From Anaerolineales bacterium (GTDB lineage Bacteria; Chloroflexota; Anaerolineae; Anaerolineales; Villigracilaceae): DNA of 64,000 bases. This document shows, piece after piece, positions 36,626-55,502 of the stretch; positions within the stretch are counted from its first letter, which is position 1; every line of letters starts with the position of its first letter. The stretch spans positions 1,331 to 65,330 of the forward strand of contig JBEKCT010000002.1 of assembly GCA_050014715.1 (NCBI GenBank), read 5' to 3'. The translations under genes were made by a program, and so were the position numbers. The notes under the pieces were generated by a model. The model saw only the letters and a list, made by a program, of their open reading frames with translations, did not search any database and was not told the origin of the DNA.

Positions 36626-36669
36626 GAAGTCTGATCGATTCTGTTAACCTAATGAGAGGAGCGCAAACC

Positions 36670-38079: not shown

Positions 38080-38082
38080 TTC

Positions 38083-39729: not shown

Positions 39730-39757
39730 TTGACACGAGTAAATTATTGTCTATAAT
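39730..39757 (+). promoter_or_regulatory. sigma70-type promoter (TTGACA-16-TATAAT) upstream of the ABC-transporter block
   Basis: TTGACA at 39730-39735 and TATAAT at 39752-39757. ACACGAGTAAATT overlaps the -35 box (39733-39745), and the variant ACATCAGTAAATT lies at 39766-39778. Confidence 0.5.
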
Positions 39758-40172: not shown

Positions 40173-41309
40173 ATGAAAACCCGAATATTGCTTGTATCTT
40201 TAATCGTGGCGGCGTCCATGATCCTGAGTGCCTGCGGATCAACCCCCACGGCTGCGCCTGCTACGGTTGCGCCTGCTGGTCCAACCGCTACGCCGCAGAT
40301 TATCATCCAGACCCAGGTGGTCATGGAGACCGCTGTTCCATCGAAGAAAAGTGTGGTCATCGGTTATGCCGCCCCAGGCCTGGTCGGTGGGCAAATTAAC
40401 ATCCAGGAGACCCTGCTCCGCTACGCTCAGAATAAGGGCTGGCAGGTGTCCGTTACCAACTCGAATGGCGATGCCCAGAAGCAAAATGATGATATTGACT
40501 ATTTGATCTCCCAGGGCGTCAGTGCGATCGTGGCCGTCCCTCAGGACAGCGCCGCGATTTGCGCCGGTGCTGCCAAGGCTAAGGCGGCCAATATCCCCTT
40601 CTATACCATTGACCGCGCTCCGTCTGGCTGCGCCATCAATATGACTATCGAATCCGATAACACCCTCGCCGGGAAGCAGGCTGGGCAGGCAATGGTTGAC
40701 GCCCTCAAGGTGAAAAACGGCTCCGAAAAGGGTATTGTGCTGGAGATCACCGGCGATCTGGGCCAAGATGTGGGCCAGAAACGCCGCGATGGCTTCCACA
40801 GTGTCGTGGATACGTTCCCGAACATCAAAGTCATCCAGAAGGTCGGTAACTGGGATGCCGCGACAGGCGCCACGGCCGTTCGCGACGTTTTGACCGCGAA
40901 CCCCACCCTGGACGGCATCTACATGGCCTCCGACGCCGTGTATATCTCCGGCACCATGGCTGAACTCAAGGCGGCCAATAAGCTCTTCAAGGTCGGCCAA
41001 CCGGGCCATGTCATCCTGACTTCCGTCGACGGCTCTCCGGCTGGTGTCCAGGCCATCAAGGATGGCTGGGGGGACGAATCCTCCAACCAACCCATCCCGG
41101 ATTTCGGGCTGATCGTGAACTTCATCGATCAGGAATTGGGTGGTAAGCCGGTCCAGGAAGGCGCATTCACCCAGGCTGGCGCCCTCTGGTCACCTGCCCA
41201 GATCGTAAAAAACTCTGACGGCACCCCTACCTGCCTGTTAGCCACTACCGCTGTCACAGCCGCCAATGACACCGATCCCGGTCTGTGGGCGAACTACGTA
41301 GTGAAATAA
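40173..41309 (+). CDS. sugar ABC transporter substrate-binding lipoprotein (CUT2/RbsB-like, PBP type I)
   Basis: 378 aa, with AAGGAG SD. It has a signal peptide with the lipobox ILSAC|G, a Thr/Pro/Ala linker, and then a periplasmic-binding-protein fold. Confidence 0.88.
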   Translation: MKTRILLVSLIVAASMILSACGSTPTAAPATVAPAGPTATPQIIIQTQVVMETAVPSKKSVVIGYAAPGLVGGQINIQETLLRYAQNKGWQVSVTNSNGDAQKQNDDIDYLISQGVSAIVAVPQDSAAICAGAAKAKAANIPFYTIDRAPSGCAINMTIESDNTLAGKQAGQAMVDALKVKNGSEKGIVLEITGDLGQDVGQKRRDGFHSVVDTFPNIKVIQKVGNWDAATGATAVRDVLTANPTLDGIYMASDAVYISGTMAELKAANKLFKVGQPGHVILTSVDGSPAGVQAIKDGWGDESSNQPIPDFGLIVNFIDQELGGKPVQEGAFTQAGALWSPAQIVKNSDGTPTCLLATTAVTAANDTDPGLWANYVVK

Positions 41310-41348
41310 ACTACTGTTCTCCAAAGATCGGTAATTAGTTTGTAATGT

Positions 41349-41388
41349 CCTGCCCCGTGTTCTTTGAGCCCTTTAGCACGGGGCAGGA
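41349..41388 (+). terminator. 11-bp GC hairpin after the binding-protein gene (attenuator/partial terminator)
   Basis: CCTGCCCCGTG (41349-41359) pairs with CACGGGGCAGG (41378-41388). The T-run is displaced 8 nt downstream. This is the usual position for differential expression of an SBP. Confidence 0.4.
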
Positions 41389-41442
41389 TCCAAAATTTTC
41401 CCGATTATCAACGGGCTTATACTTTAAAGAAGAGCGGAGCTT

Positions 41443-42963
41443 ATGATAGCAACGGATAGCTCACCTGTAATTCAAATGCAAGATATTGTAAAAACCTTCC
41501 CTGGGGTGCGCGCTCTGGACCACGTCAATTTTGAATTGAAACGCGGCGAGTTGCGATCCCTGGTGGGTAAAAATGGCGCAGGGAAGAGCACCCTGATGAA
41601 CGTCCTGACAGGTATCTACCAACCGGATCAGGGCAAGATCTTCATCAACGGGGAACTCATTCACCCGATGACGACCGAGCGGTCCAGGCAACTGGGGATC
41701 GCTTACGTTCACCAGCAATCTCAACTCATCCCTGCTCTTTCCATAGCAGAGAACATCTTTTTAGGCAGTCCGCTTACCCGCAGTGGCGGGTTTGTGGATT
41801 GGAAACGGCTGATTTCGGAAGCTACCAAACAGTTGCACACACTCGGTCTGGAGATTGATGCCGAACGAAAGATAGAAGACCTGACCGTTGCGGAAAAACA
41901 AATTATCGAAATTGCCAAAGCCTTGTTTGCAAACGCCCATACGATTATCCTGGACGAGGCGACGGCTCCCCTGCCCAAAGAAGAGGTCAATATGTTATTT
42001 GACTTCGTGCGCCGGCAGAGCGAGCAGGGCGTGGCATTCGTTTACATTTCCCACTACCTCGAAGAGGTATTCGAGCTGTGCCAGGTGGTCACGGTGATGC
42101 GCGATGGCCAGATCATCGGTGAAAACCAAGTCTGCGATCTTGACCAGTCGGAATTGATTCGCCTGATCAGTGGAACACAGGTGGAGCAGTTCCACCGCGA
42201 ATCGCATAACACACAGCGGAAACCAGTTCTGGAGATTAAGGGCCTGACCCGTCCCGGGTTCTATAGGGATATCCATCTGACGGTTTGTGAGGGCGAGGTG
42301 GTCGGCCTGACCGGGCTGGAGGGATGTGGTAAAGGCAACCTGGCGCGTGGTGTATATTCGCTCGAGCCGCGCGGGAATGGCGAAGTTTTATTGGCTGGCC
42401 AACCGTTTTCTCCCACCGGGCCCGAAAGCGCGCTTAATGCTGGCGTGGCTTACCTTCCCCGCGACCGGCATGGGATGGGCCTTATAGGGATGCGGCCGGT
42501 TGGGGAAAATGTTACCCTTTCTATCCTCAGGCGGTTATGCAACCGATTTGGTTTACTGGACCCCGGTAAAGAACGCAGACATATCAGTTACTTTATCAAA
42601 AAGTTAGGCATCATGACCCCTTCGGTCAATCAGCCGGTGGAGTTCTTGAGCGGCGGCAACCAGCAGAAAGTTGTGTTCGCCAAGCTGGCATCCACCGAGC
42701 CCAAAGTCCTTTTTCTGGATGAGCCCACCCAGGGTGTTGACGTCCAGGCCAAGGTCGAGATCATGAGGATCATCGACCAGCTGGCTGGCCAAGGAGTGGC
42801 GGTTATCTATATTTCCGAAGAAATTCGTGAGCTGCTGGATGTGTGTGATCGCATCCTGGTCATGTATAACGGCGAAATCTCCTCGGAATTCAAGCCTGGT
42901 GACCCGAACTACAACGCTCACCAGATCCTCGGTGCCGTGGAAGGAGAGCGGGTGACCCTATGA
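41443..42963 (+). CDS. sugar ABC transporter ATP-binding protein (duplicated ATPase, RbsA-like)
   Basis: 506 aa. It has Walker A GKNGAGKST, the signatures in LTVAEKQIIEIAKAL and LSGGNQQKV, and two NBDs in one chain. Confidence 0.92.
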   Translation: MIATDSSPVIQMQDIVKTFPGVRALDHVNFELKRGELRSLVGKNGAGKSTLMNVLTGIYQPDQGKIFINGELIHPMTTERSRQLGIAYVHQQSQLIPALSIAENIFLGSPLTRSGGFVDWKRLISEATKQLHTLGLEIDAERKIEDLTVAEKQIIEIAKALFANAHTIILDEATAPLPKEEVNMLFDFVRRQSEQGVAFVYISHYLEEVFELCQVVTVMRDGQIIGENQVCDLDQSELIRLISGTQVEQFHRESHNTQRKPVLEIKGLTRPGFYRDIHLTVCEGEVVGLTGLEGCGKGNLARGVYSLEPRGNGEVLLAGQPFSPTGPESALNAGVAYLPRDRHGMGLIGMRPVGENVTLSILRRLCNRFGLLDPGKERRHISYFIKKLGIMTPSVNQPVEFLSGGNQQKVVFAKLASTEPKVLFLDEPTQGVDVQAKVEIMRIIDQLAGQGVAVIYISEEIRELLDVCDRILVMYNGEISSEFKPGDPNYNAHQILGAVEGERVTL

Positions 42964-44000
42964 ACAGTCGAAAAATCATATTATGGGTTTTGAATAACTT
43001 GATTTGGTTCTTATTATTGTTGACGGTCATTTTCTTTGCGCTGATATCGAAACACTTCCTGACCCGCATCAACCTGACGAACATCGTTATCCATGCTGCC
43101 GTAATCGGCCTTTTGGTGGTCGGCCAGGTGTTTACGCTGGTTACCGGGAACTTTGACCTATCCTCGGAGGCAACGCTGGGATTAACTGCGCTCATCGCCG
43201 CCTGGCTGATGCTCCCCAAGGGGGCACCGACTTTTGGTGGGGGAATCCTGTTCAGCGTCTATCTGGCCGTTCCGATCATGCTCCTTATCGGGGTGTTGAT
43301 CGGCTTGATCAATGGGCTGCTGATTACCCGCCTTAAAGCAAATGCCTTTATTGTGACCCTGACCATGCAACTGATCATCCGCGGGGTCATGATGCCAATC
43401 ACCGCGGGCAATACCATGGCCCGACTTCCGGCTGATTTTAAGTTCCTGGGTAATAACTCGCTCGGCCCTATCCCGATTTCAGTGATCGTCCTGGTCGTGG
43501 CGTTCGCAATCGGCCATATTATTTTGCAATACCGGCCTTTTGGCCGCAGTTTATTTGCGGTCGGCGGGAATAAGACTGCAGCCCTGGCGGCGGGTATTAA
43601 CCCCGACAGGCGCATCCTCCAAGTCTATGTAATCAGTGGTCTTATGGCAGCTATCGCCGGGTGGCTGATGGCAGGCCGAACGGGTGTGATTGTCCAGAAT
43701 ATGGGCCAGGGTTACATCTTTGAGGTGATGGCGGCCTCGGTTATCGGTGGGATCAGCCTGAACGGGGGGCGCGGTACAATGGTGGGTGCATTCGGCGGGG
43801 TGCTTCTCCTCTCGACAATTGAATCCGGGTTGAGCCTTATGCGGATCTCAACATTCTGGATTGAAATCGCGAGTGGTCTGATTATCCTGATCGCCATGCT
43901 CATTGATGCCCAGAAAGTCCGCTTCACCTCCTCTCAGGCAGCCCCCCTGGCCAAAATTAGTGCCAAAGCCACGGCCTCCGAGTCTGCTGGGAACGATTGA
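42960..44000 (+). CDS. sugar ABC transporter permease (RbsC-like)
   Basis: 346 aa, polytopic and hydrophobic. It has the FGRSLFAVGGN motif. Its start overlaps the ATPase stop (ATGA). Confidence 0.9.
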   Translation: MNSRKIILWVLNNLIWFLLLLTVIFFALISKHFLTRINLTNIVIHAAVIGLLVVGQVFTLVTGNFDLSSEATLGLTALIAAWLMLPKGAPTFGGGILFSVYLAVPIMLLIGVLIGLINGLLITRLKANAFIVTLTMQLIIRGVMMPITAGNTMARLPADFKFLGNNSLGPIPISVIVLVVAFAIGHIILQYRPFGRSLFAVGGNKTAALAAGINPDRRILQVYVISGLMAAIAGWLMAGRTGVIVQNMGQGYIFEVMAASVIGGISLNGGRGTMVGAFGGVLLLSTIESGLSLMRISTFWIEIASGLIILIAMLIDAQKVRFTSSQAAPLAKISAKATASESAGND

Positions 44001-44068
44001 GCGGTATCCATTCGGCCGACTGGTGGAATCTCTTTTTTCATTTTTAATATAGAAAGGTTGGACACTCC

Positions 44069-45106
44069 ATGGATGTGCGCAAATATGTTCCGGCGGTGCT
44101 AGATAACCTGATCTGGGTTCTCCTGATAGGTGTGATCATCCTATTTTCTACCCAGAACTCAGCTTATCTGTCACCATTGAACTTTCTCAATATTCTATTT
44201 TCAGCAGCGGTATTGGGACTGATGGTTATCGGAGAAACTTTTGTCCTGATTACCGGGAATATAGACCTATCGGTCGAATCGACCGTTGCTCTGTGCGCTT
44301 TGCTCGGAGCCTGGTTAACGGTGCGCCTAGGACCTCCGGATAATGGTTTGGGGATCCAGATGAACCCTTTCCTAGCCATTGCGGCCCTGCTTGCTGCCGG
44401 CGCTTTCGTGGGTTGGTTCAACGGGTTCCTGATTACGCGCATGAAGATGAATGATTGGGTGGTCACGCTCGCCATGCTGATTGCACTGCGGGGATTGATG
44501 CACTTGCTTCCGGCTGGGAACACGGTTTACAACACGACCATGCCCTACAATTTTCTTGGCCAATCGAGGATTGGGCCGATCCCCTTACCTGTGATCGTCA
44601 TCATCGTGGCATTCGCCGCAGCCTTTATTGTTCTGAAATATACTCCCTTCGGGCGGAGCCTGTACGCGATCGGAGGTAACCGGATGGCCGCAAGGGCCTC
44701 GGGGATCAACCCCGAGCGGCGCATACGCCAGGTTTACCTGATCTCGGGGATCCTGTCGGCGGTTGCGGGCTGGATGCTGGGCGCCCGGATCACTGCCGTA
44801 CCCCCGAACCTGGCGAGTGGCTATGTATTCGATGTGATGGCCGCCTCCGTGATTGGCGGGATTAGCCTGCAAGGGGGGCGTGGCTCGATGCTGGGCTCCT
44901 TTGGAGGGGTGCTGCTGCTGGCTGCGATCAGCTCAGGCCTAAACCTGACAGATGTGAACGCTTTCTGGATAGATCCGATCCGCGGCGGCGTTATCCTTTT
45001 GGCTATGCTGATCGATGCCCAGAAAGTTCGCTACCGGGCGCCGGTGGTGAAATCTGCCCCCACGCCTGCGTCGGCTTCTCCAGGAGCGCCTCCTACATCA
45101 GGCTAA
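44069..45106 (+). CDS. sugar ABC transporter permease (RbsC-like), second copy
   Basis: 345 aa, polytopic. It has FGRSLYAIGGN and is paralogous to the preceding permease. Confidence 0.9.
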   Translation: MDVRKYVPAVLDNLIWVLLIGVIILFSTQNSAYLSPLNFLNILFSAAVLGLMVIGETFVLITGNIDLSVESTVALCALLGAWLTVRLGPPDNGLGIQMNPFLAIAALLAAGAFVGWFNGFLITRMKMNDWVVTLAMLIALRGLMHLLPAGNTVYNTTMPYNFLGQSRIGPIPLPVIVIIVAFAAAFIVLKYTPFGRSLYAIGGNRMAARASGINPERRIRQVYLISGILSAVAGWMLGARITAVPPNLASGYVFDVMAASVIGGISLQGGRGSMLGSFGGVLLLAAISSGLNLTDVNAFWIDPIRGGVILLAMLIDAQKVRYRAPVVKSAPTPASASPGAPPTSG

Positions 45107-45152
45107 GCTTCGACCGATAGCATTACTTGAGACGTCGTGCGAACCGTAGGAA

Positions 45153-45226
45153 GGAGTTGGGGAAGGCAAACCGTCGATCTGTAGAACTTGGCCGAGCCCG
45201 GATATTCATGCCCAACTCCTTTTTTT
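45153..45226 (+). terminator. long-loop hairpin followed by T7 (possible terminator or structured RNA)
   Basis: GGAGTTGGG (45153-45161) pairs with CCCAACTCC (45211-45219) and is followed by TTTTTTT (45220-45226). The loop is about 49 nt, which is atypical. Confidence 0.3.
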
Positions 45227-45284
45227 ACCCTGGCAATGCTCTCGTTCTTAGCCTCACCCCTTCACCAGAAAACAAAGAGGCCTC

Positions 45285-46256
45285 ATGAACGCTTCTCCAT
45301 CCACAATTCAAGAACAGCGGGTGGCCTTGGGAGATGCCCTTGTTCACCTGGGAGGAGAATTCTCCAACCTGGTGGTGCTCTCCCCGGATGTATCCATATC
45401 TACCCGGGCTATCAAGTTTAAAGCTGCTTTCCCTGATCGATTCATTTGCACCGGCATCTCGGAGCAGAACACAATTGGAATGGCAGCGGGTCTCTCGACC
45501 ATGGGCTGGGTACCGGTCGTCGTCGGATACGCGATGTTCGTAGGCGGGAAAGCCTGGGAACCCACGCGCAACTCGATCGCCTACCCTCACTTGAATGTAA
45601 AGATCGTTGCGACGCATGGAGGAATCGGGGTGGGCCCGGATGGTGTGACGCACCAGGCGATCGAAGACTTGGCATTGATGCGATCGATCCCTGGAATGAT
45701 CGTCCTGACACCGATGGACGCCAACCAGGTAGAACCGGCGCTGAGAGCAGCCCTGACGACCCAAGGGCCGGTTTATATCCGGCTGGAACGGGCAGCGATG
45801 CCGATTCTTTCCGAAACGGGGGCACCCTATCTGATCGGTGGATCCATCCGGCTGCGCGAAGGCCGGGATGCCACGGTCCTGGCCATTGGTGGGATGTCTG
45901 CTGCGGCGGTTGAGGCGGCGGATGCACTTGTACAGGAGGGTATCCACATCCGCGTGGTGAGTATGCTTTCGGTCAAACCACTCGATGAAGCGGCAATCGT
46001 CGCCGCTGCACACGATACAGGCGCTATCGTCACCGCTGAAGACCATAATCGCCTTGGCGGGCTGGGCGGAGCTGTAGCCGAGACGCTGGCCCGCTTGGCC
46101 CCCGCACCCATGGAGCAGATTGCCGTAGAAGATACCTTCGCTGAAAGCGGTTCCGTCAAAGCGCTTTACACGAAATACCACCTGACCTCCAGTGATATCG
46201 CCAGTGCAGTGAAAAAAGCGATCTCCAGAAGCCAGGCGACCACCAAGGGTCTTTAA
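45285..46256 (+). CDS. transketolase, C-terminal (pyrimidine-binding) subunit
   Basis: 323 aa. Motifs seen are FICTGISEQNTIGMAAGL, HGGIGVGPDGVTHQAIEDLALMRSIP, and a C-terminal regulatory-like domain. Confidence 0.9.
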   Translation: MNASPSTIQEQRVALGDALVHLGGEFSNLVVLSPDVSISTRAIKFKAAFPDRFICTGISEQNTIGMAAGLSTMGWVPVVVGYAMFVGGKAWEPTRNSIAYPHLNVKIVATHGGIGVGPDGVTHQAIEDLALMRSIPGMIVLTPMDANQVEPALRAALTTQGPVYIRLERAAMPILSETGAPYLIGGSIRLREGRDATVLAIGGMSAAAVEAADALVQEGIHIRVVSMLSVKPLDEAAIVAAAHDTGAIVTAEDHNRLGGLGGAVAETLARLAPAPMEQIAVEDTFAESGSVKALYTKYHLTSSDIASAVKKAISRSQATTKGL

Positions 46257-47096
46257 ATGGTAAACGCCGCATCACAAATTGACCTTCCCAAGATTGTGCT
46301 GCTGACCGAACGGGCGCGCTGTATGCGCTGCGACATCATCCGCATGACTAGCGCCGCCGGCAGCGGCCACCCGGGACCATCCTTCTCGCCGGTGGAGTTC
46401 CTCTCGGCCCTCTATTTTTCGGAAATGCGCATCGACCCTGTCAATCCGAGCTGGCCTGAACGGGACCGGTTTGTGTTGTCCAAAGGGCATGCCGCACCGG
46501 TTCTGTACGCTGCGCTACACGAGGCAGGTTATTTCTCCGACGAAGTGATGCTCTCCCTGCGCCAGGTAGGCAGCCTGCTGCAAGGCCATCCGACCGTGAA
46601 GACCCCTGGCGTGGATGCGACAACGGGCTCGCTGGGGCTCGGTCTTTCCCAAGTGGTCGGTATGGCGCTGGGCGCCCGCATGCGCGGGGCCAACAGCCGG
46701 GTCTATGCCGTCATCGGAGATGGTGAATGTGATGAGGGCCAGATCTGGGAGGCCGCCCTGGCAGCGGCCCATTTCCACCTGGGCAACCTGGCCGTATTCC
46801 TCGACCATAACGGCTACCAGTTCGACGGGCCGGTAAGCCAGGTAATGGGCCTCGAACCCCTGGCCGATAAATGGCGCGCATTTGGTTGGCGGGTTGAAGA
46901 GATCAATGGCCATTCGTTCGAGGACATCCTCGGCTTTCTCGAGCGTTCGCGCGCCTTCCCGGACCAGCCCTCGATGGCGGTCGCCCGTACGATAAAAGGG
47001 TACGGGGTGTCTTTTATGGCTGGAAGCCAGGAATACCATGCCCGATCGCTGACCCCCGAAGAGACGCAGCGGGCACTCGCCGAATTGGAGTGCTAA
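46257..47096 (+). CDS. transketolase, N-terminal (TPP-binding) subunit
   Basis: 279 aa. Motifs seen are SGHPGPSFS, LSKGHAAPVLYA, GSLGLGLS and GDGECDEGQIWEA. Its ATG immediately follows the TAA of the previous gene. Confidence 0.9.
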   Translation: MVNAASQIDLPKIVLLTERARCMRCDIIRMTSAAGSGHPGPSFSPVEFLSALYFSEMRIDPVNPSWPERDRFVLSKGHAAPVLYAALHEAGYFSDEVMLSLRQVGSLLQGHPTVKTPGVDATTGSLGLGLSQVVGMALGARMRGANSRVYAVIGDGECDEGQIWEAALAAAHFHLGNLAVFLDHNGYQFDGPVSQVMGLEPLADKWRAFGWRVEEINGHSFEDILGFLERSRAFPDQPSMAVARTIKGYGVSFMAGSQEYHARSLTPEETQRALAELEC

Positions 47097-47099
47097 ACG

Positions 47100-48047
47100 A
47101 TGCCCACACCCAAGATTGCAGTAGTCGGCAGTTGCAATATGGATATTTATTCGTGGACCGATCACCTGCCGGAGCCCGGCGAGACGGTGATCGGCGACCG
47201 GTACCTGATGGTCATGGGTGGCAAAGGCGCCAACCAGGCAGTGGCTGCCTGCCGCCAGGGCGCCCAGGTGAGCATGATTGGCCGGGTTGGGGATGACCTG
47301 TTCGGTCAGCGCATGCTGGATACCCTGGTCAGCTACGAGGTAGACACATCCTTTGTCCAGGTGGATCACCAGACCGGGTCAGGAGTGGCACTGGTGATCG
47401 TGGACAAAAAGCCGGAGAACATTATCCTGGTGGTGCCGGGGACCAATATGCGCATTGAGCCAACCGATATTGACCCCGCGGCCGAGAGACTCCATGAGGC
47501 GGATGTATTGCTGCTTCAGATGGAGATCCCGCTCCCGACCATCGAGCATGCCCTCGACATCTCACGGCAGGGAAAGACGTTCTGCATCCTCAACCCTGCG
47601 CCGGCCCGGCCTCTCCCGGATCAGATTTTCCGGAAGATCGACTTAATCACCCCCAACCAGAACGAAGCTAAAGTCCTGACCGGCATCCCGGCGGATACGG
47701 TCAAAGGTGCGGAAGCAGCCGGAAAGGCGCTGATCGAGCGTGGGGTTCCGGCGGTAATCATCACGCTGGGAGCGCAGGGTGCGCTGCTTGTGCTTCCCAA
47801 CGAGACACACCACGTGGAAGGATTGCGCATCGAGGATGCGCTGGACACCACCGGCGCCGGGGATGCCTTCATGGGCGGGCTCTCGGTCGCCCTCGCCAAA
47901 GGAAAATCCTTGCAGCCGGCTGTCCGGTTTGCCAACGTCGTCGCGGCGCTCTCAACCCGGCGGCGAGGGGCAATGCCCTCCATGCCCAGCCGGGAGGAGG
48001 TGGAAGTGTTCATTCGGGATCATAATCTTGAATCCCTGGTCGCCTAA
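47100..48047 (+). CDS. rbsK: ribokinase (PfkB family)
   Basis: 315 aa, collinear with RbsK. Motifs seen are VVGSCNMD, PGETV.G, GGKGANQAVA, LNPAPA, TPNQNEA and DTTGAGDAF. Confidence 0.88.
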   Translation: MPTPKIAVVGSCNMDIYSWTDHLPEPGETVIGDRYLMVMGGKGANQAVAACRQGAQVSMIGRVGDDLFGQRMLDTLVSYEVDTSFVQVDHQTGSGVALVIVDKKPENIILVVPGTNMRIEPTDIDPAAERLHEADVLLLQMEIPLPTIEHALDISRQGKTFCILNPAPARPLPDQIFRKIDLITPNQNEAKVLTGIPADTVKGAEAAGKALIERGVPAVIITLGAQGALLVLPNETHHVEGLRIEDALDTTGAGDAFMGGLSVALAKGKSLQPAVRFANVVAALSTRRRGAMPSMPSREEVEVFIRDHNLESLVA

Positions 48048-48060
48048 AAGAGAGGAAAAA

Positions 48061-49158
48061 ATGGGCATTTCGAATGAGGCAAAGGTAAAAGAAGAACGGA
48101 TCCATCACCTGCTGGGTCAGCGTGGGTATGATTCGTTGCTGGTTGTGCGCCGGGAGAACTTTGCCTGGCTCAGCTGCGGTGGGCGGGCAGTCACTTCGTA
48201 TGTGGTGGAGAATGCGCCGGTGTATCTGCTGGTGACCCCCACCCGCAAGTATGCCATCGGATACTGCATGGACGTGCCGCGCACCTTTGACGAGGAACTG
48301 GCCGGCCAGGGGTATGAACCAGTGGCGCTGCCCACTTTTGGGAAGACCCCCGACCAGGCTGCCTTGGAGCTTGCCACGGGCCGCCTGGCAGCAGATTGCG
48401 CCATCGCCGGGCTGGATAACCTGGGGCCGGCGGTGACCGCACTCCACGAGCCGCTTTTGTCCGAGGAGATGGAGCGCTACCGTGCAGCCGGAAAAGAGGC
48501 CGGCGAGTTAATTCACGATCTGGCCAGCTGGGTCAGGCCCGGGATGTCCGAGCGCCAGGTCCTCGGCCACATGTGGGGGTTGTACGCCGAACACAATTTT
48601 GATGGGGACTGCATGTTCGTCGTTTCGGACGAGCGGATCCGCCGCTACCGGCACGCGGTGCCCTCCAATAAGGTCATCGAGCGGGTGGTGATCCTGGCTC
48701 CGGCAACCTATAAGTACGGCCTGCATTTTCCGGTCAGCCGGGTTGTTTATTTTGGCCAGCCCACGAAAGATGAACGCCGGCGTCATCTGGCGGCCTCCTC
48801 TATCCAGGCGGCGATGGTCGCCAGCGCAAAACCGGGCATGCACCTTACGACCATGCGTCAGACTTGCCTGGACCTCTTTGACCAGCTCGGCTTCCCAGAA
48901 GAGAAAACCAACCACATGCACGGTGGGCCGACTGGCTACCGAGTCAGCTATCCAGAACGCTGCCAGGATCCGAACGAAATGGTCAAGCCCGGTATGGCTC
49001 TTGGCTGGTATATCACCCTCGCAGGGGCAAAGAGCGAGGAGGTTACCCTGGTAGATGAGCAGGGTGGCCAGCTCATCACTGTAGATCCGACCTGGCCGAT
49101 GCTCGAGATCGAGTATCAGGGACAAAAAGTGGTTGTTCCGGATGTCCTGCTGCAATAG
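48061..49158 (+). CDS. M24-fold (creatinase/prolidase-like) protein, probably non-peptidase
   Basis: 365 aa from ATG 48061 (GAGAGGAAAAA upstream). The ORF-track start at 47779 overlaps rbsK and is rejected. It has the pita-bread-fold pattern HMHGGPTGY and KSEEVTLV. The usual Asp-Asp metal pair is not evident. Confidence 0.65.
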   Translation: MGISNEAKVKEERIHHLLGQRGYDSLLVVRRENFAWLSCGGRAVTSYVVENAPVYLLVTPTRKYAIGYCMDVPRTFDEELAGQGYEPVALPTFGKTPDQAALELATGRLAADCAIAGLDNLGPAVTALHEPLLSEEMERYRAAGKEAGELIHDLASWVRPGMSERQVLGHMWGLYAEHNFDGDCMFVVSDERIRRYRHAVPSNKVIERVVILAPATYKYGLHFPVSRVVYFGQPTKDERRRHLAASSIQAAMVASAKPGMHLTTMRQTCLDLFDQLGFPEEKTNHMHGGPTGYRVSYPERCQDPNEMVKPGMALGWYITLAGAKSEEVTLVDEQGGQLITVDPTWPMLEIEYQGQKVVVPDVLLQ

Positions 49159-49476
49159 GAGATTGAGACGTCAACTACCACCCGCTAATGGCTTATATCT
49201 GGAGTAATAGAGTGCCCTACTTTCAAAGCTGCTTACCTTTTCCGATACATTCGTCAGTAATCAGGGTTATGCGCTGGTGTACCCTGTGGCATTTCGATTG
49301 GATGACTTCTCTTACGACAGAGAGTGGGGCCTCCGGTCCCACAACAGCCCAGTTGGCAAGAATTTCTCGTACTTCCTGCAAACACCAGTGCCGTTTAATT
49401 AGAACAATCGTACCGCAAGAAAGGAGAGGCGGCTTTCTCCCGTGTTGAAACGGGTGGTTTCCACCGCCAAGAAACT

Positions 49477-50640
49477 ATGAAAATTGCGATTGGCAGCGAC
49501 CACGCAGGTTTTCCCTTGAAACAGACCGTTATGGCAGAGCTGCAGGAACTGGGTCATGAGGTGACCGACCTGGGCGCTTTTACCGATGCACACGCGGCTG
49601 ACGATTACCATTTCACCGGAGTGCGCGTGGCGGAGACGGTGGTCAGCGGACAGGCAGACCGGGGGATTGTCATCTGCGGGACGGGGATCGGCATCAGCAT
49701 CGCCGCCAACAAGATCCCCGGGGCAGACGTCGCCCTATGCAACGATCTCTATACAGCGCAGAAATCGCGCGAGCACAACAACGCCAATGTCCTGGCGATG
49801 GGGTCACGGGTCGTCGGCGAAGGTCTGGCGAAGGAGATCGTGCGTGTCTGGCTGGCGACCCCCTATGCAGGCGGCCGTCACGAGGCCCGCAATCTTAATC
49901 TGCGCAAAATAGAAGCCAGGTATTCCCGCACACCGCAGACCGGATCACGCCGCGCCAGCCGAGGGAAACCCGCACCTCTCCGCGGGCGTCTGGTCGATCT
50001 CTCTCAATTGATATATCCCTCCCAAGAGGAGTACCGCTTCGACGCGCAGGTTTACCCGGTTAGCGAACTGCTCCCCCAATACCACACCCCGGTGGGGCAG
50101 TGGTATGTCATGACCGAGGTGACCTTGTGGAGCCACGTAGGTACGCATATCGAGTCGCCGCTTCACTACATAAAGGATGGACCAGATGTGGCTGACCTGC
50201 CGCTCGAGCAGTTGATCGGCCCGGCGGTGGTCCTCGATTTCAGCCACAAGCAGACCAACGAACCCATCCAGCTGGAAGAACTGCGCGAAGCAGGGGACGT
50301 GCAGGTCGGGGATATCGTCATCCTCAAAACTGGGCGCGACCGGCTGTATCGGACGCCGCAGGCGCATGACCGTCCTTACCTCGCTGTGGAAGCCACCCAT
50401 TGGCTGGCGGAAGACCGCCGGATCGCCCTACTGGGTACAGATGCCTCGGGTTTTGAGGTGCGCGGGATCGATACTCAGCCGAACCACCAGATCCTGTTCG
50501 AGCGTGGCATCCCGGTGATCGAACACCTGACCAACCTGTCATCCCTCACCCGGAGCCGGGTTACACTAATCGTCCTGCCCTGGAAGGCCCGCGGCTTGGA
50601 TAGCTGCCCGGTGCGGGTGGTAGCCTTCGAAGAAGAATAA
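49477..50640 (+). CDS. fusion protein: RpiB/LacAB sugar-phosphate isomerase (N) + putative cyclase/formamidase-family domain (C)
   Basis: 387 aa. Residues 1-~148 read MKIAIGSDHAGFPLK...VICGTGIGISIAANK...GGRHEARNLNLRKIE (RpiB). An Arg/Ser/Pro linker follows. Residues ~170-387 carry the motif SHVGTHIESPLH (HxGTHxExPxH, 50134-50166), typical of the cyclase family. Confidence 0.8.
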   Translation: MKIAIGSDHAGFPLKQTVMAELQELGHEVTDLGAFTDAHAADDYHFTGVRVAETVVSGQADRGIVICGTGIGISIAANKIPGADVALCNDLYTAQKSREHNNANVLAMGSRVVGEGLAKEIVRVWLATPYAGGRHEARNLNLRKIEARYSRTPQTGSRRASRGKPAPLRGRLVDLSQLIYPSQEEYRFDAQVYPVSELLPQYHTPVGQWYVMTEVTLWSHVGTHIESPLHYIKDGPDVADLPLEQLIGPAVVLDFSHKQTNEPIQLEELREAGDVQVGDIVILKTGRDRLYRTPQAHDRPYLAVEATHWLAEDRRIALLGTDASGFEVRGIDTQPNHQILFERGIPVIEHLTNLSSLTRSRVTLIVLPWKARGLDSCPVRVVAFEEE

Positions 50641-50652
50641 ATAAGGTGACTT

Positions 50653-51105
50653 ATGAAAATCATTATTGGCAGTGATCACGTTGGCTTCCCACTGAAGGAA
50701 ACGATTGTGCAGCATCTCAAGGACCGCGGATATGAGCCGGTAGATTTGGGCGTGCGGGACGAGACGCCGGTCGATTATCCGGATATCGGTCAGAAGCTGG
50801 CGGAGTGCGTTGCCCGAGGGGAGTACGAACGGGGGATCCTGGTGTGCGGTACGGGGATCGGCATGGCAATTGTGGCTAACAAAATCCCGGGTGTGCGAGC
50901 AGCAGTATGCCATGATCCCTATTCGGCTGACCGTGCGCGTAAAAGCAACAATGCTCAGATAATGACTCTGGGCTCCCTGGTGGTCGGCGCGGAGCTGGCC
51001 AAAATACTGGTTGATATCTGGCTGGCATCTGAATTTTCCGGTGGGCGATCAGCACCCAAGGTGGAAAAGATCAATGCCTTGGACGCTTATTACCGGAAAC
51101 GCTAA
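50653..51105 (+). CDS. rpiB: ribose-5-phosphate isomerase B / LacAB-family sugar-phosphate isomerase
   Basis: 150 aa. Motifs seen are MKIIIGSDHVGFPLK, ILVCGTGIGMAIVANK and GGRSAPKVEKI. Confidence 0.9.
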   Translation: MKIIIGSDHVGFPLKETIVQHLKDRGYEPVDLGVRDETPVDYPDIGQKLAECVARGEYERGILVCGTGIGMAIVANKIPGVRAAVCHDPYSADRARKSNNAQIMTLGSLVVGAELAKILVDIWLASEFSGGRSAPKVEKINALDAYYRKR

Positions 51106-51120
51106 GAAATCTGGTGAACC

Positions 51121-52113
51121 TTGAATACTGACCCATTGGCAGTAGATAAATCGACATTACAGCATCTTCTGTATCAAATGCTTGTCATCCGGCGCTTTGA
51201 GGAAGCACTTTATCGGGCTTTTCAAACTGAGAAAATGCCCGGCACCATGCACCAAACGACCGGCCAGGAGGCGATTGCGGCGGGGGTTGGAGAGGCGCTC
51301 CAGCCCGGGGATGTGATGACTTCTACCCATCGCGGCCATGGGCATGCGATTGCCAAGGGGCTAAGCATTCGGAAACTGATGGCGGAGATGTACGCTCGCC
51401 AGACGGGAACGAGCCGGGGGATAGGCGGTTCGATGCACCTCTTCGACCTTGCCAACGGGTTTTTGGGCACGACAGGCGTGGTGGGGGCCGGGGTGCCGAT
51501 CGCGGCCGGTGCCGCGCTGGCCCTGCATCTGGAAGGCAATCACAGGGTGGCGATCGCATTCATGGGAGATGGAGCCATGAACCAGGGTGCCGTCCACGAG
51601 GCGATCAACCTGGCGGCGGTTTGGAAGCTGCCGGTGGTCTTTGTATGCGAGAACAACGGTTATGCCGTTTCACTGCCCATGCAGAAGGCTTTTGCAATCA
51701 GCGCCATCGCCGAACGGGCGGCAGGGTACGGTATTCCTGGGATGACGCTGGATGGCAACGATGTGTTGGCGATCTATGAAGCGGCCTGTGCCGCAGTTGC
51801 CCGGGCGCGGGCAGGTGATGGCCCCTCTTTCCTGGAGTGTCTGACTTACCGCCATAAAGGCCATTCACGCTTTGAGCCGGCCAGCTACAGACCAGCCGGG
51901 GAGCTGGATGCATGGCTAGAAAAAGACCCAATCAAAGGATTCTGTCAGCGGCTCATCAGCTCGGGTATTTTCAAAAATAGCGAGATCGATGCCGTGCAGG
52001 CTGAGGCTCAGGTGGCAGTGGACGATGCAATCGCCTTTGCCCACTCCAGCCCACCCGCATCGTTGGAGGAAGCGCTGCACTTGACCTTTGCTGACGGCGA
52101 AGAGAGCAGGTAG
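51121..52113 (+). CDS. E1 alpha subunit (TPP-dependent), paralogue 4
   Basis: 330 aa, TTG start 15 nt after the rpiB stop. It has STHRGHGH and GDGAMNQG...CENN (GDG-x26-NN). Confidence 0.9.
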   Translation: MNTDPLAVDKSTLQHLLYQMLVIRRFEEALYRAFQTEKMPGTMHQTTGQEAIAAGVGEALQPGDVMTSTHRGHGHAIAKGLSIRKLMAEMYARQTGTSRGIGGSMHLFDLANGFLGTTGVVGAGVPIAAGAALALHLEGNHRVAIAFMGDGAMNQGAVHEAINLAAVWKLPVVFVCENNGYAVSLPMQKAFAISAIAERAAGYGIPGMTLDGNDVLAIYEAACAAVARARAGDGPSFLECLTYRHKGHSRFEPASYRPAGELDAWLEKDPIKGFCQRLISSGIFKNSEIDAVQAEAQVAVDDAIAFAHSSPPASLEEALHLTFADGEESR

Positions 52114-52115
52114 TC

Positions 52116-53156
52116 ATGCTAACCATGAATATGTCACAAGCGATCAACCTGGCCCTGCGCGAGGAGATGCGCCGGAACGCTAAAGTAGTTCTATTGGGCG
52201 AGGATATCGGCCGCTTCGGCGGGGCTTTCCAAGTAACCAAAGGGCTGCTGGAGGAATTTGGAGAGGACCGCGTTCGGGACACCCCCCTGTCTGAGGCGGC
52301 GATCATCGGCTGTGCGGTCGGGATGGCCCTGATGGGCTGGCATCCGGTAGCCGAGATGCAGTATTCCGATTTCGTCACCTGCGGGTTTGACCAGCTGGTC
52401 AACCAGGCGGCAAAAATTCACCTGATGTCCGGAGGAGGGGCGTGCGTCCCGATGGTGTTGCGCTTGCCGATCGGGGCCAAAGAGCACGGTGCGCAGCACG
52501 ACCAGAGCCCGGAAGCCTGGTTCATGCACACCCCCGGTCTGAAAGTTGTCATCCCTTCTACCCCCTACGATGCCAAAGGCCTGCTGAAGAGCGCCATCCG
52601 CGACCCCAATCCGGTGGTCTTCTGCGAACACAAAGTCCTGTATGGTACCCAATCGGTGGGCGGCCGCGGGCTGCCGGATCCGAAAAACGGAGAGACCGGG
52701 AGCGGCCTGGGGGCACAGGTCCCTGAGGAAGAATATACGATTCCTTTGGGAGTAGCGGATTTAAAGCGGCCCGGCCGGGACGTGACGATCATTGCCACGG
52801 CACTCATGGTCCACCGGTCAGTTGAGGCCGCCCTCCAACTTGCACAGGAGGGGATCGAGGCGGAGGTTGTCGATCCACGCACGCTCGTCCCGCTCGACCG
52901 AGAGACCATCCTAGGGTCGGTTGCCCGCACTCACCGGGTGATGGTGGTGACCGAGGAAGCCCGAACAGGGTCAGCGGGAGCGGAGATCGCCGCGCTGATC
53001 GCCGAAGAGGGCTTTGACGAGCTGGATGCTCCGGTGGTGAGGCTGGGCGCACCGGATGTTCCCCTCCCCTTCGCGCCTCACTTGCAGGCGAAATTTATCC
53101 CAAGCGCTGCGGAGATCGCGCGGGTGGCCCGTAGGCTCGTCCAGAAACAGATTTAG
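52116..53156 (+). CDS. E1 beta subunit, paralogue 4 (with ~20-aa insertion)
   Basis: 346 aa. Motifs seen are RDTPLSE, QHDQSPE and FCEHKVLY. The extra segment SVGGRGLPDPKNGETGSGLGA is absent from the other three betas. Confidence 0.9.
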   Translation: MLTMNMSQAINLALREEMRRNAKVVLLGEDIGRFGGAFQVTKGLLEEFGEDRVRDTPLSEAAIIGCAVGMALMGWHPVAEMQYSDFVTCGFDQLVNQAAKIHLMSGGGACVPMVLRLPIGAKEHGAQHDQSPEAWFMHTPGLKVVIPSTPYDAKGLLKSAIRDPNPVVFCEHKVLYGTQSVGGRGLPDPKNGETGSGLGAQVPEEEYTIPLGVADLKRPGRDVTIIATALMVHRSVEAALQLAQEGIEAEVVDPRTLVPLDRETILGSVARTHRVMVVTEEARTGSAGAEIAALIAEEGFDELDAPVVRLGAPDVPLPFAPHLQAKFIPSAAEIARVARRLVQKQI

Positions 53157-53170
53157 TCTTTTGGAGAACT

Positions 53171-54415
53171 ATGTCGTTTGAAGTGATCATGCCCAACCTG
53201 GGAGTAGTAAGCGAAACCTCAACCTTACTGCGCTGGCTTGTCCAGCCGGGTGATGAAGTGCGGAGAGGGCAGCCCTTTTTTGAAGCTGAATCCGATAAAG
53301 CGACCGTAGAGATCGAAGCCGGGGAGTCGGGGCGGTTTATCCCTCTTGCAAGTGCAGGGGACTTGATTGAGGCTGGTAAGGTGATCGGGATGCTGTTGAG
53401 TCCAGGGGAAGAATATCCGCAGGAAGAAGACCTCCCAAACAAGACCTCCTCCGCATCCGTTGCCAGTCCCCTCAGGCCAGTCGCGTTGCCGATGAACAAC
53501 CCGGAGCCACCCACCACGGCTCGTTCGGGCCGGGTGATGGTCACCCCACTTGCCAGGCGTCTGGCTGCCCGGCAGGGTGTGGATATCACCAAAATTAGTG
53601 GGTCAGGACCGCGCGGAAGGATTGTGGAATCGGACGTGCGGCAGGTCATGGAGCAACAAGCCGGGAGGGGATTCTCGCTCGAGGAAAAATCCCCGTTGTC
53701 GACTTTGCGCGGTGTAATTGCCCGCCGGATGGAAGAGTCAGCGCATACCACCGCACCGGTCACCCTGGTCACCGAGGGGAATGCTGAAAGGCTGGTTTCC
53801 CTCCGCGAAAACCTGCAGCATCACCCGGGCATGACAGGGGAATGGGTTACCTATAACCTGCTCCTGGCCCGGATAACCGGGCAGGCTTTGCTTGACTTTC
53901 CCCTTTTGAATGCCTCGTTGAGCGCTGGCGAGATTACCTTCCATGATATGGTCAACATTGGTGTGGCAGTGGATACCGAGAGAGGTCTGATCGTGCCGGT
54001 CTTGAAAGATGTCACCCACCGCCCGCTCCTTGAGCTGGGGAAGGAATTGGCTGACCTGATCGGGCGGGCCCGCGCGGGCCGCTCTTTCCCAGAAGACTTA
54101 CAAGCCGGGACATTTACAATTACCAACTTAGGCCAATATGGGATCGATGCGTTCACCCCGGTGATTAATTTACCCGAATGCGCAATCTTAGGTATTGGTC
54201 GGATCCGCCGATCGCCGGTCGAACGGGATGGAGGGCTGATACTGGGACAGATGATTACCCTTTCGTTAACCTTTGATCATCGCCTGGTGGACGGCGCCCC
54301 CGCCGCCCGCTTCTTGCAACGCTTGATTCAGATCGTAGAGGCACCGGATCAGATTGGGATTTTACATTCAGGAGGGCTTGGTGAGCAGGAGGAAGGCTTA
54401 TCAACTGCGGCGTAA
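53171..54415 (+). CDS. dihydrolipoamide acyltransferase (E2), paralogue 3
   Basis: 414 aa, with TGGAGAA SD. It has a lipoyl domain (EAESDKAT), a binding domain (VTPLARRLAARQGVDI), and the catalytic DHRLVDGA. Confidence 0.9.
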   Translation: MSFEVIMPNLGVVSETSTLLRWLVQPGDEVRRGQPFFEAESDKATVEIEAGESGRFIPLASAGDLIEAGKVIGMLLSPGEEYPQEEDLPNKTSSASVASPLRPVALPMNNPEPPTTARSGRVMVTPLARRLAARQGVDITKISGSGPRGRIVESDVRQVMEQQAGRGFSLEEKSPLSTLRGVIARRMEESAHTTAPVTLVTEGNAERLVSLRENLQHHPGMTGEWVTYNLLLARITGQALLDFPLLNASLSAGEITFHDMVNIGVAVDTERGLIVPVLKDVTHRPLLELGKELADLIGRARAGRSFPEDLQAGTFTITNLGQYGIDAFTPVINLPECAILGIGRIRRSPVERDGGLILGQMITLSLTFDHRLVDGAPAARFLQRLIQIVEAPDQIGILHSGGLGEQEEGLSTAA

Positions 54416-55493: not shown

Positions 55494-55502
55494 AAAATTT
55501 AC

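Follow-up and report, generated by a model that had tools for sequence, protein, structure and literature searches.

Conserved linkage of a cyclase-family protein with E1 genes in a sugar operon of an Anaerolineales bacterium, and its possible role in lipoyl-dependent cleavage of ketose phosphates

We analysed a 64,000-nucleotide stretch of contig JBEKCT010000002.1 from an Anaerolineales bacterium (GenBank assembly GCA_050014715.1), referred to here as the window, which carries at 40173-54415 a 13-gene unit in which sugar uptake, phosphorylation and isomerization genes are followed by an E1alpha/E1beta/E2 set with a cyclase-family protein close by. Families were assigned to the open reading frames (ORFs) with Pfam and NCBIfam models and curated equivalog cut-offs. 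All 13 ORFs that an initial annotation had named as co-oriented genes were found on the plus strand with the families expected:

40173-41309, + strand: substrate-binding protein (SBP) of CUT2 type, Peripla_BP_4, with an N-terminus that reads as a lipoprotein signal
41443-42963, + strand: ATP-binding cassette (ABC) ATPase, a single 506-aa protein with two ABC domains
42960-44000, + strand: permease 1, BPD_transp_2
44069-45106, + strand: permease 2, BPD_transp_2
45285-46256, + strand: split transketolase, Pyr+C half, by Pfam
46257-47096, + strand: split transketolase, thiamine diphosphate (ThDP) half, by Pfam
47100-48047, + strand: ribokinase-type PfkB kinase, TIGR02152
48061-49158, + strand: degenerate M24 (pita-bread fold) protein, Pfam, 53 bits
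49477-50640, + strand: RpiB::cyclase fusion, Pfam LacAB_rpiB and Cyclase, with RpiB at about 49483-49890 and cyclase at about 49993-50637
50653-51105, + strand: second (free) RpiB, TIGR01120
51121-52113, + strand: E1alpha (E1alpha4), E1_dh, PF00676
52116-53156, + strand: E1beta, Transket_pyr/Transketolase_C
53171-54415, + strand: E2 acyltransferase with lipoyl domain, peripheral subunit-binding domain (PSBD) and catalytic domain, the last gene
39730-39757, + strand: sigma-70 promoter TTGACA-N16-TATAAT, a 12/12 consensus match

The E1alpha start is a TTG at 51121, with an in-frame TTG at 51136 as an alternative, and the ATG at 48061 of the M24-like gene is backed by homologs of exactly 365 aa. 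The tight junctions described earlier were recovered at 0, 3, 13, 12, 15, 2 and 14 nt; the end of the ATPase gene runs 4 nt into that of the first permease. Only one split transketolase is present and the E1alpha/E1beta order is normal, so that the second transketolase-type enzyme in reversed subunit order counted by the initial annotation falls away. The promoter at 39730-39757 is conserved in L006 (numbered loci are homologous loci from other genomes, L006 being the closest relative) and is predicted to mark the start of the unit. No credible internal promoter or terminator was seen inside the 13 genes; a separate promoter for the E1/E2 genes had been considered, and no promoter match precedes E1alpha, where the 15-nt junction leaves no room for one. 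The unit ends at 54415 facing a convergent gene, and no terminator was detected after E2. From this arrangement, the 13 genes appear to be one transcription unit, the downstream half of a larger sugar island at 32579-54415. Their clustering is far beyond chance, with the same genes recurring together in other phyla.

Three wider gaps had been proposed as internal punctuation. Two of them, 41310-41442 and 45107-45284, do keep their length in L006, with 81% and 63% identity, respectively. The third, 318 nt at 49159-49476, appears instead to be a recent lineage-specific insertion, absent from the two closest relatives, because the same junction is only 33 nt in L005 and 11 nt in L006. The insert holds an 86-codon ORF without a Pfam match; it gave no Rfam match (gathering threshold or E<=1) and a fold z-score of -0.18, and a test for a mobile element found no meaningful terminal repeats and no second copy within the window.

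The cyclase-domain alignment was scanned against one genome per species, and the best 80 loci, one per species, were kept and analysed with local BLAST and clustering; all counts out of 80 refer to these cyclase loci. E1 genes lie within 10 kb of the cyclase gene in 45 of the 80, and E1alpha is directly downstream of the cyclase on the same strand in 41/80. The E1-linked loci span Chloroflexota, Aerophobetes, Clostridia, Actinomycetes, Verrucomicrobiota, Victivallales, Bacteroidota, Planctomycetota, Omnitrophota, Firestonebacteria, and Bathyarchaeia. Judged from gene neighbourhoods, a small module of four to five genes built on the cyclase and E1alpha/E1beta has been kept in at least 45 species and about ten phyla. 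Its partners, in every case sugar-phosphate enzymes, vary, the E1-linked loci holding a cupin phosphoglucose isomerase (PGI; 20 loci), a ROK kinase (17), RpiB (16), a PfkB kinase (12) or a transketolase (7). Typically an isomerase gene comes first and is followed by those for cyclase, E1alpha, and E1beta; the kinase gene directly precedes the isomerase in some Bacteroidota loci and follows E1beta elsewhere. Kinase and isomerase have been swapped by non-orthologous displacement while the cyclase and E1alpha/E1beta stayed. RpiB is a conserved partner of the module, but the constant partner of E1 is the cyclase domain rather than RpiB, a point that the initial annotation missed.

The loci fall into three archetypes. 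Archetype C, that of the window, occurs in Anaerolineae, Aerophobetes, Clostridia, Actinomycetes, and a Bathyarchaeon, and combines a ribokinase-type PfkB kinase, RpiB, cyclase, and E1alpha/E1beta, with or without E2, split transketolase, and M24-like genes; its minimal form is RpiB-cyclase-E1alpha-E1beta-ribokinase. RpiB is often embedded inside the E1/E2 operon, and in L002 the E1beta, cyclase, and E2 genes overlap. Archetype B, found in Opitutales, Akkermansiaceae, Victivallales, Bacteroidota, and Planctomycetota, has as its fullest order a catalytic-domain-only E2, cupin PGI, cyclase, E1alpha, E1beta, a free lipoyl protein of about 80 aa, a SorC regulator, a ROK kinase, and a CUT2 ABC system. 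Archetype A comprises the 35 loci without E1, from Caldilineaceae and others, in which a GHMP (mevalonate-kinase-like) kinase, the cyclase, and a ribulose-phosphate-3-epimerase-family gene follow one another among dehydrogenases; the GHMP kinase is present in 28 of these loci and the epimerase-family gene in 31. In a neighbour-joining tree the cyclases without E1 form one derived clade, sister to that of the window, which fits a cyclase that would act on a ketose phosphate independently of E1. In about 30 species (L012-L038 and others; e.g., L014:6771-11000) the same cyclase subfamily lies in a separate conserved block made up, in this order, of a 653-aa protein without a Pfam match, the GHMP kinase, which just passes the mevalonate-kinase cut-off, the cyclase, the epimerase-family gene, and then GFO/MocA, 2-hydroxyacid dehydrogenase, and short-chain dehydrogenase/reductase (SDR) genes; it looks like an uncharacterized pathway.

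A lipoyl domain is encoded in 26 of the E1-linked loci. It belongs to a full-length E2 in some, and in others it forms a free protein of about 80 aa whose gene comes immediately after that of E1beta; several of the free-lipoyl loci also carry a separate catalytic-domain-only E2 that retains DHRMLDG. E2 is split in this way in Verrucomicrobiota and Bacteroidota, where the lipoyl protein follows E1beta (L064, at about 12750; L068, L071, L076). The catalytic-domain-only E2 lies upstream in L064 (8339-9181) and has neither lipoyl domain nor PSBD; a separate upstream E2 is likewise found in several Verrucomicrobiota-type loci. The picture that emerges is of E1alpha/E1beta, a lipoyl carrier, and the cyclase as a unit that evolution has kept beside enzymes predicted to make ketose phosphates.

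As a fusion with RpiB the cyclase is rare, with three full-length fusion clusters among the matches listed (P0001-P0003), and stand-alone cyclases at 41-85% identity are common. The cyclase half retains the binuclear-metal motif: HxGTHxExPxH, His178, and Glu190 are invariant, and Glu replaces the motif Asp across the whole subfamily. Arg12, Lys99, and Arg140 are also invariant and His138 nearly so; of these, all but Arg12 lack an equivalent residue in 1r61, 8hmo, and KynB, hydrolases of solved structure. The protein thus differs from the kynurenine formamidases, isatin hydrolases, and cyclase-like esterases of its family (PF04199) in the Glu for Asp replacement, in the extra conserved cationic residues, and in a context of sugar phosphate rather than tryptophan catabolism, and it does not reach the arylformamidase model TIGR03035 (69.1 versus 223 bits). 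The known chemistry of the family is the hydrolysis of amides, esters, and lactones, and its members include an esterase and a dienelactone hydrolase (PMC5341072). We consider it most likely that the cyclase acts on a phosphorylated sugar at the step just before E1, given where its gene lies in the order, that it is fused to RpiB, that a sister clade occurs without E1 and is followed by a ketose-phosphate epimerase gene, and that cationic residues are conserved. Two further gene families accompany the cyclase without an obvious role in sugar catabolism: a creatininase-family gene lies directly 5' of it in three loci (L039:8979-9965, L043, and L048), and URO-D-like genes are found in eight cyclase loci (e.g., L057:17216-18376) and also in the apionate cluster L086.

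The E1 and E2 proteins have canonical domains (E1alpha, PF00676 at 294.7 bits; E1beta, PF02779 at 158 bits and PF02780 at 134 bits; E2, PF00364, PF02817, and PF00198), and the lipoyl-lysine context ESDKAT and the catalytic DHRLVDG can be read in the E2 translation. Pyruvate dehydrogenase (PDH) complexes of the E1alpha/E1beta type supply the best sequence matches and share the E2 domain architecture. The window set is unlike PDH, however, in scores below the equivalog cut-offs for E1alpha (TIGR03182, 355 versus 394 bits) and E2 (265 versus 722 bits), in an E1beta insert, in its sugar-catabolism context, and in being one of four paralogous sets in the window. E1beta misses the equivalog NF008854 (329 versus 454) but passes the subfamily model NF006667 (340 versus 321). 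In a neighbour-joining tree E1alpha4 falls in a clade whose members nearly all adjoin a cyclase gene and which lies away from the three other E1alphas of the window, and E1beta proteins of the cyclase-linked clade share a clade-specific insert of about 12-18 residues. A search for transketolase-like phosphate-binding Arg residues in E1beta, by alignment with the transketolase C half and AptB, was uninformative, the split transketolases themselves lacking the canonical Arg at the motif. Among ORFs of 350 aa or longer, none in the window or in loci L001-L084 showed the redox-disulfide motif of E3.

These data bear directly on the null hypothesis of a plain ribose operon (uptake, RbsK, RpiB, transketolase) next to which a common pyruvate or acetoin dehydrogenase of some other regulon happens to lie. 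It is true that ordinary ribose and pentose phosphate pathway enzymes are what the kinase, the two RpiBs, and the transketolase resemble, and that the domain make-up of E1alpha/E1beta and E2 is canonical, yet the cyclase-E1 linkage recurs in 41-45 species and about ten phyla with changing kinases and isomerases, the three dehydrogenase proteins stay under the PDH equivalog cut-offs, E1 forms its own clade with a specific E1beta insert, and the 15-nt junction before E1alpha comes without a promoter match. We regard the null hypothesis as strongly disfavoured and very improbable. The earlier claim that the E1/E2 set belongs to the sugar route, and that a plain Rbs and pentose phosphate reading is insufficient, is supported by the same breadth of linkage.

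The transporter, kinase, and isomerases indicate what kind of sugar may enter the route. As in the E. coli rbsDACBK operon with RpiB, there is a CUT2 importer with a two-domain ATPase, a ribokinase-type kinase, and RpiB; unlike Rbs, there are two permease genes, no RbsD among the genes found, seven further genes outside the Rbs route, and a transporter under the Rbs cut-offs (RbsB 69.8 versus 337 bits, RbsA 451.8 versus 745 bits, RbsC 181.8 versus 398 bits). The SBP is below every NCBIfam SBP equivalog, and it, the ATPase, and the permeases score far under all curated sugar-specific cut-offs; the nearest solved structures to the SBP are 4y9t/5br1 (108 bits) and ribose binders. The PfkB kinase passes the ribokinase equivalog TIGR02152 (341 versus 299.65 bits), misses the stricter NF008353 (309.8 versus 341 bits), and matches E. 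coli RbsK with 239 bits; the ribokinase cut-off is likewise exceeded in L001, L008, L011, and L066, whose kinases belong to minimal modules. Both RpiB paralogs retain the catalytic Asp/His, Cys, and Arg and pass TIGR01120 (cut-off 138.65), the fused one with 157.2 bits and the free one, which has 163 bits to C. thermocellum RpiB 3he8 and belongs to a subtype that adjoins E2 in other loci, with 164.6 bits. That two RpiB paralogs exceed a plain ribose reading, as first noted, agrees with both being conserved partners of the module. The transketolase N half has 300 bits to the generic split transketolase of Carboxydothermus (6yak), and the C-before-N gene order recurs in L002, L005, L006, L047, and L069; by sequence, this transketolase would be of the generic type. 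An erythritol or threitol route of the EryI/DerI kind was considered and rejected, both RpiBs lying under the cut-off of 240 of the erythrulose-4-phosphate isomerase model DerI NF051858 (174.8 bits for the free RpiB and 127.6 bits for the other). Since kinase and RpiBs score as ribose enzymes and the transketolase is generic, the tetrose or polyol substrate entertained by the initial annotation is not indicated by these genes. Ribose would be the simplest reading of kinase, RpiB, and transketolase.

Taking module and context together, we propose that the E1/E2 module carries out a lipoyl-dependent, acetoin-dehydrogenase-like cleavage of a ketose phosphate, a reading we favour while giving it slightly less than an even chance. 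The CUT2 ABC system would import a pentofuranose-type sugar, the ribokinase-type kinase would phosphorylate it, and RpiB would convert the aldose phosphate to a ketose phosphate. From there, two ways would be open: a non-oxidative one through the generic split transketolase, and another through a five-gene module of the cyclase-family metal enzyme, two RpiBs, E1alpha/E1beta, and E2. In the latter, the cyclase-family protein would be an obligate partner and act on the phosphorylated sugar just upstream of the E1 step, after which ThDP-bound E1 would attack the C2 carbonyl and break the C2-C3 ketol bond of the ketose phosphate, freeing a triose phosphate from pentoses or erythrose-4-phosphate from hexoses. 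The C2 fragment would be loaded onto the E2 lipoyl arm and passed to CoA, the product being glycolyl-CoA, or acetyl-CoA if the fragment were dehydrated as in phosphoketolase. Substrate, cleaved bond, acyl product, and cyclase reaction are all what we infer from the genes and their neighbours.

There are precedents for the chemistry. AcoAB-type E1 enzymes cleave acyloins, and transketolase and phosphoketolase cleave the same ketol bond of xylulose-5-phosphate (Xu5P) and fructose-6-phosphate (F6P) with ThDP. Acetoin dehydrogenase (AcoA/AcoB as E1, AcoC as E2, AcoL as E3; acoXABC in Cupriavidus) is alike in having an E1alpha/E1beta heterotetramer-type ThDP enzyme and a lipoyl E2 in a catabolic operon, and in cleaving the C-C bond of a ketol (acyloin) without 2-oxoacid decarboxylation, just as we propose for the module; in the window, one of the other E1 sets comes with an AcoX-like gene. 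Unlike acetoin dehydrogenase, the module has sugar kinases, phospho-sugar isomerases, and the cyclase as neighbours, no E3 nearby, an E2 that is split in many lineages, and a presumably phosphorylated substrate. Transketolase, also encoded in the same operon, and phosphoketolase (Xfp) are alike in the ThDP-dependent cleavage of the C2-C3 bond of Xu5P or F6P, and the dual specificity of Xfp is mirrored by pentose-type and hexose-type versions of the module; they differ in that the C2 acceptor proposed here is the lipoyl arm and then CoA rather than an aldose or phosphate, and in that the protein family is E1alpha/E1beta, not TK or XFP. The combination of cyclase and E1alpha/E1beta with a sugar kinase and isomerase differs from both aco and pdh operons, since it has other partners, no E3 gene nearby, and an E2 that can be split; its parts belong to known superfamilies. 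A full-text literature search returned no description of a cyclase-E1 sugar module, and a search for plasmids bearing the cyclase in cultured carriers gave only two distant matches.

Several points weigh against a lipoyl-dependent cleavage of ketose phosphates. That E1 would accept a ketose phosphate is predicted from gene context. The closest resemblance of E1alpha is to its PDH counterpart (219 bits to the human protein, 355 bits to the model), so that a 2-oxoacid or small acyloin may be the substrate instead. In 19 E1-linked loci the examined DNA, in some cases a short contig, holds no lipoyl domain, and E3 is near the module in none of the loci, which leaves the reoxidation of the lipoyl arm unexplained. 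Glycolyl-CoA would be an awkward product, since nothing in the cluster is an obvious consumer of it. Amide, ester, and lactone bonds are all missing from a ketose phosphate, and the position of the cyclase before E1 therefore lacks a known reaction. The neighbour-joining trees are rough, being midpoint-rooted without outgroups.

The order RpiB, cyclase, E1 and the RpiB::cyclase fusion, which place the cyclase between isomerase and E1, are also what an acetyl-forming variant would call for. In one version the cyclase would dehydrate ribulose-5-phosphate (Ru5P) to the 1-deoxy-2,3-diketone (phospho-DPD), which an AcoAB-like E1 would convert to acetyl-CoA and 3-phosphoglycerate; in the other, E1 would dehydrate dihydroxyethyl-ThDP in the manner of phosphoketolase and pass the acetyl group to a permanently reduced lipoyl arm. 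The second version would be redox-neutral and so need no E3, and none was found in the window or the 84 loci; the type B E2 has no lipoyl domain and no PSBD, the domain at which E1 and E3 dock, and the route would end in central metabolites. DPD-phosphate arises from Ru5P spontaneously and as an intermediate of RibB, MtnB converts a ketose phosphate to a diketone, and diacetyl is cleaved by AcoAB-type E1 enzymes. Against this, no dehydratase is known in the cyclase fold, whose known members are hydrolases, the hexose-type loci with cupin PGI and ROK kinase would yield 4-phosphoerythronate, which is not a central intermediate, E3 is often encoded elsewhere in the genome, and the E2 of the window retains its PSBD. 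We judge the acetyl-forming variant to be quite unlikely.

The window holds three further E1alpha/E1beta sets on the minus strand among sugar and polyol oxidoreductases (7996-16110 and 22627-31805), and four paralogous sets in 64 kb are unusual:

13170-14129 / 12162-13148, - strand: E1 set 1 (E1alpha / E1beta), with E2 at 9832-11043 and an AcoX-like NAD-kinase-fold gene at 11071-12084
25817-26791 / 24836-25816, - strand: E1 set 2 (E1alpha / E1beta)
29913-31034 / 28936-29916, - strand: E1 set 3 (E1alpha / E1beta), with E2 at 27720-28904 and a GntR/FCD regulator at 31053-31805

They lie between genes for alcohol and polyol dehydrogenases, and one of them has, like aco operons, an AcoX-like gene. 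This agrees with a rather improbable alternative in which the E1/E2 set would work at a later step, on a small product of the island that carries no phosphate (an acyloin such as acetoin or a butanediol-like one, erythrulose, hydroxypyruvate, or a different 2-oxoacid), and the cyclase would serve there as a lactonase or (thio)esterase, for example on an acyl thioester; the esterase and dienelactone hydrolase in its family (PMC5341072) fit such a role. In L090 (SBP 62%), the orthologous transporter and kinase (ribokinase-type, 61%) are directly adjoined by set 3 orthologs (75-80%), an ortholog of the HIBADH-like gene of the window (77%), and an operon of zinc-dependent alcohol dehydrogenase (Zn-ADH), SDR, and glyoxalase genes (45-72%), orthologous to the Zn-ADH operon of the window. 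In L087 (1873-10860) and L088, an M24-like ortholog (58%) has genes for an FGGY kinase and two class-II aldolases on one side and those for a ferredoxin and an aldehyde:ferredoxin oxidoreductase on the other, the latter followed by E1alpha/E1beta (77% to window set 1) and an SDR, another sugar-linked E1 context. What tells against a small-product role is that RpiB sits inside the E1/E2 operon in many loci, that the constant neighbours are kinases and phospho-sugar isomerases rather than dehydrogenases, and that the cyclase clade without E1 speaks against a function tied to the E1 product.

Upstream of the transporter, six more genes are syntenic with it elsewhere; the 13-gene unit belongs with them functionally and is not self-contained:

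32579-33565, + strand: SorC/DeoR-type sugar-binding regulator (Pfam Sugar-bind and helix-turn-helix), with 39.6% identity to the regulator of the E. coli SE15 apiose cluster
33596-34204, + strand: SIS isomerase (Pfam/NCBIfam)
34214-35272, + strand: Zn-ADH (Pfam/NCBIfam)
35279-36625, + strand: DRL_cat/SAF oxidoreductase (Pfam/NCBIfam)
36652-38079, + strand: fucose-isomerase-like (FucI-like) protein (Pfam/NCBIfam)
38083-39606, + strand: FGGY kinase (Pfam/NCBIfam)

In L091 (SBP 60%), FucI-like, SIS, Zn-ADH, DRL oxidoreductase, and FGGY kinase genes with 38-49% identity to the window block at 33596-39606 flank the ABC system, and in L092 (SBP 55%) two Apiosidase-domain genes, an M24-like gene, a FucI-like gene, and an FGGY-family kinase lie beside it. 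An autoinducer-2 (Lsr) reading of the FGGY kinase and SorC regulator was rejected with scores far under the LsrK and LsrR cut-offs, as was an inositol reading (IolM/IolO) of the Zn-ADH and TIM-barrel genes, which are below the cut-offs.

The M24-like protein, whose fold was assigned correctly at the outset, has lost most of the metal site of that fold. Aligned with the P. furiosus prolidase 1pv9, it has other residues in place of Asp209, Asp220, and His284 and a gap around Glu313, and it keeps Glu327, the numbering of the metal ligands (Asp, Asp, His, Glu, Glu) being the one we take to apply to 1pv9. With at least three of five metal ligands lost, it is probably not a metallopeptidase. A canonical M24 peptidase gene elsewhere in the window (6704-7897), which follows a LacI-family gene, was considered as an ortholog of the extra M24 of L002 and proved unrelated. 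The M24-like family is narrow (70 protein clusters), and relatives occur near GH140-like genes in L092 and within clusters of apionate lactonase and RuBisCO-like protein (RLP), L085 and L086, which also hold a DUF1537-type kinase and split transketolases.

These neighbours raise D-apiose, a branched pentose of plant cell walls, as a serious alternative substrate. Carter et al. in 2018 reportedly described a D-apiose transketolase pathway with ApsI, AplK, and AptAB. Applied here, apiose released by GH140-type apiosidases would be imported and converted to apulose-4-phosphate, either by the FucI-like protein and FGGY kinase or by the ribokinase-type kinase and RpiB, and apulose-4-phosphate would be split to dihydroxyacetone phosphate and a C2 unit by transketolase and/or by E1/E2 as a lipoyl-dependent replacement of AptAB; we consider both the route to apulose-4-phosphate and this cleavage unlikely. 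The narrow M24-like family in the D-apionate lactonase clusters with RLP, DUF1537-type kinase, and split transketolases, and the SBP ortholog of L092 beside its Apiosidase-domain, M24-like, and FucI-like genes, argue in its favour, as do Apiosidase-like GH140 genes in 13 of the 80 cyclase loci (SorC-type genes occur in 14/80). SBP, M24-like, and cyclase relatives are thus all found beside apiosidase-like or apionate genes. The SBP of a Verrucomicrobia-type locus has 79 bits to 4ry0/5ibq, which are presumably apiose binders. The combination of CUT2 ABC system, SorC regulator, FGGY kinase, and split transketolase also matches the experimentally validated apiose cluster of E. coli SE15, whose regulator is the 39.6% identical one listed above (PMC13001218). 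Unlike the D-apiose pathway, however, the transketolase is nearer the generic split type (300 bits) than AptA/AptB (transketolase N half 40% and C half 36% identity, 190 and 147 bits), the FGGY kinase is just 24% identical to AplK, and the kinase and RpiBs pass ribose-specific cut-offs. E1/E2, cyclase, RpiB, and the ribokinase-type kinase occur in no described apiose pathway, no GH140 gene lies within the 64-kb window, and the minimal modules of Aerophobetes and Clostridia are without apiose-associated genes. On balance, a ribose-type pentose is somewhat more likely than D-apiose as the substrate.

Regulatory sequences may extend the island further. At the operon promoter, a 15-nt motif is present twice:

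39731-39745 and 39764-39778, + strand: operator-like motif TGACAYSAGTAAATT, both copies kept in L006

As TGACACGAGTAAATT, the motif has 4 matches in the window against 0.32 expected. Another copy lies at 16900-16914, at promoter 16899 of the Zn-ADH operon, and one with two mismatches at 5492-5506, before the LacI-family gene (5513-6523). The promoters at 16899 and 39730 are both perfect and nearly identical to each other, and in each the -35 box overlaps with the motif. This distribution suggests that one regulon may join the Zn-ADH operon (17001-22612), the LacI gene, and the 13-gene unit. The leader between promoter and SBP gene is 415 nt long and has one strongly conserved block, 40020-40075, which contains GAGAGGAGGTG and is 88% conserved with L006 versus 49-76% in the surrounding leader; it could be the start of a small ORF or a cis-regulatory element. 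A riboswitch or other RNA in the leader was rejected, with no Rfam match (gathering threshold or E<=1) and a fold z-score of -1.0.

Other features of the window touch the unit less directly. G+C is 0.58-0.61 over the transketolase-to-E2 part (46001-54000), 0.53-0.56 over the transporter genes, and 0.45-0.49 immediately downstream. Convergent with E2, at 54630-56504 on the minus strand, are genes for rare-sugar enzymes, the first passing the D-psicose 3-epimerase equivalog (382 versus 300 bits) and the second encoding another xylose-isomerase-like TIM-barrel protein. At 1491-5329 lie a transaldolase-family gene, a tartrate/isopropylmalate-dehydrogenase-like gene, and a non-Pyl MttB-family methyltransferase (3872-5329). 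A DDE transposase fragment (59693-60286), a DUF4147/MOFRL gene (60795-62141), and a BRO-N domain gene (62563-63402) occupy 59693-63402; the DUF4147/MOFRL protein presumably belongs to the glycerate-kinase family.

In textbooks, E1/E2 lipoyl complexes stand for the oxidation of 2-oxoacids and acetoin. We tentatively raise the wider possibility, with confidence well short of even, that cyclase, E1alpha/E1beta, lipoyl carrier, and E2 together constitute a new "lipoyl-dependent ketolase", a third ThDP solution beside transketolase and phosphoketolase. It would pass the C2 unit of Ru5P/Xu5P, F6P, or apulose-4-phosphate straight to CoA in about ten bacterial phyla and in Bathyarchaeia, perhaps free of E3 on a permanently reduced lipoyl arm, and with a cyclase-fold protein catalysing a new sugar-phosphate reaction. 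If true, this would give E1/E2 lipoyl complexes a new substrate class and sugar phosphates a new entry to acyl-CoA, and might offer pathway engineering an alternative to phosphoketolase. It would also matter for annotation, because genes of the module type now carry the labels pyruvate dehydrogenase, arylformamidase, and Xaa-Pro peptidase, and it would concern carbon flow in abundant uncultured fermenters among the Anaerolineae, Verrucomicrobiota, Bacteroidota, and Bathyarchaeia.

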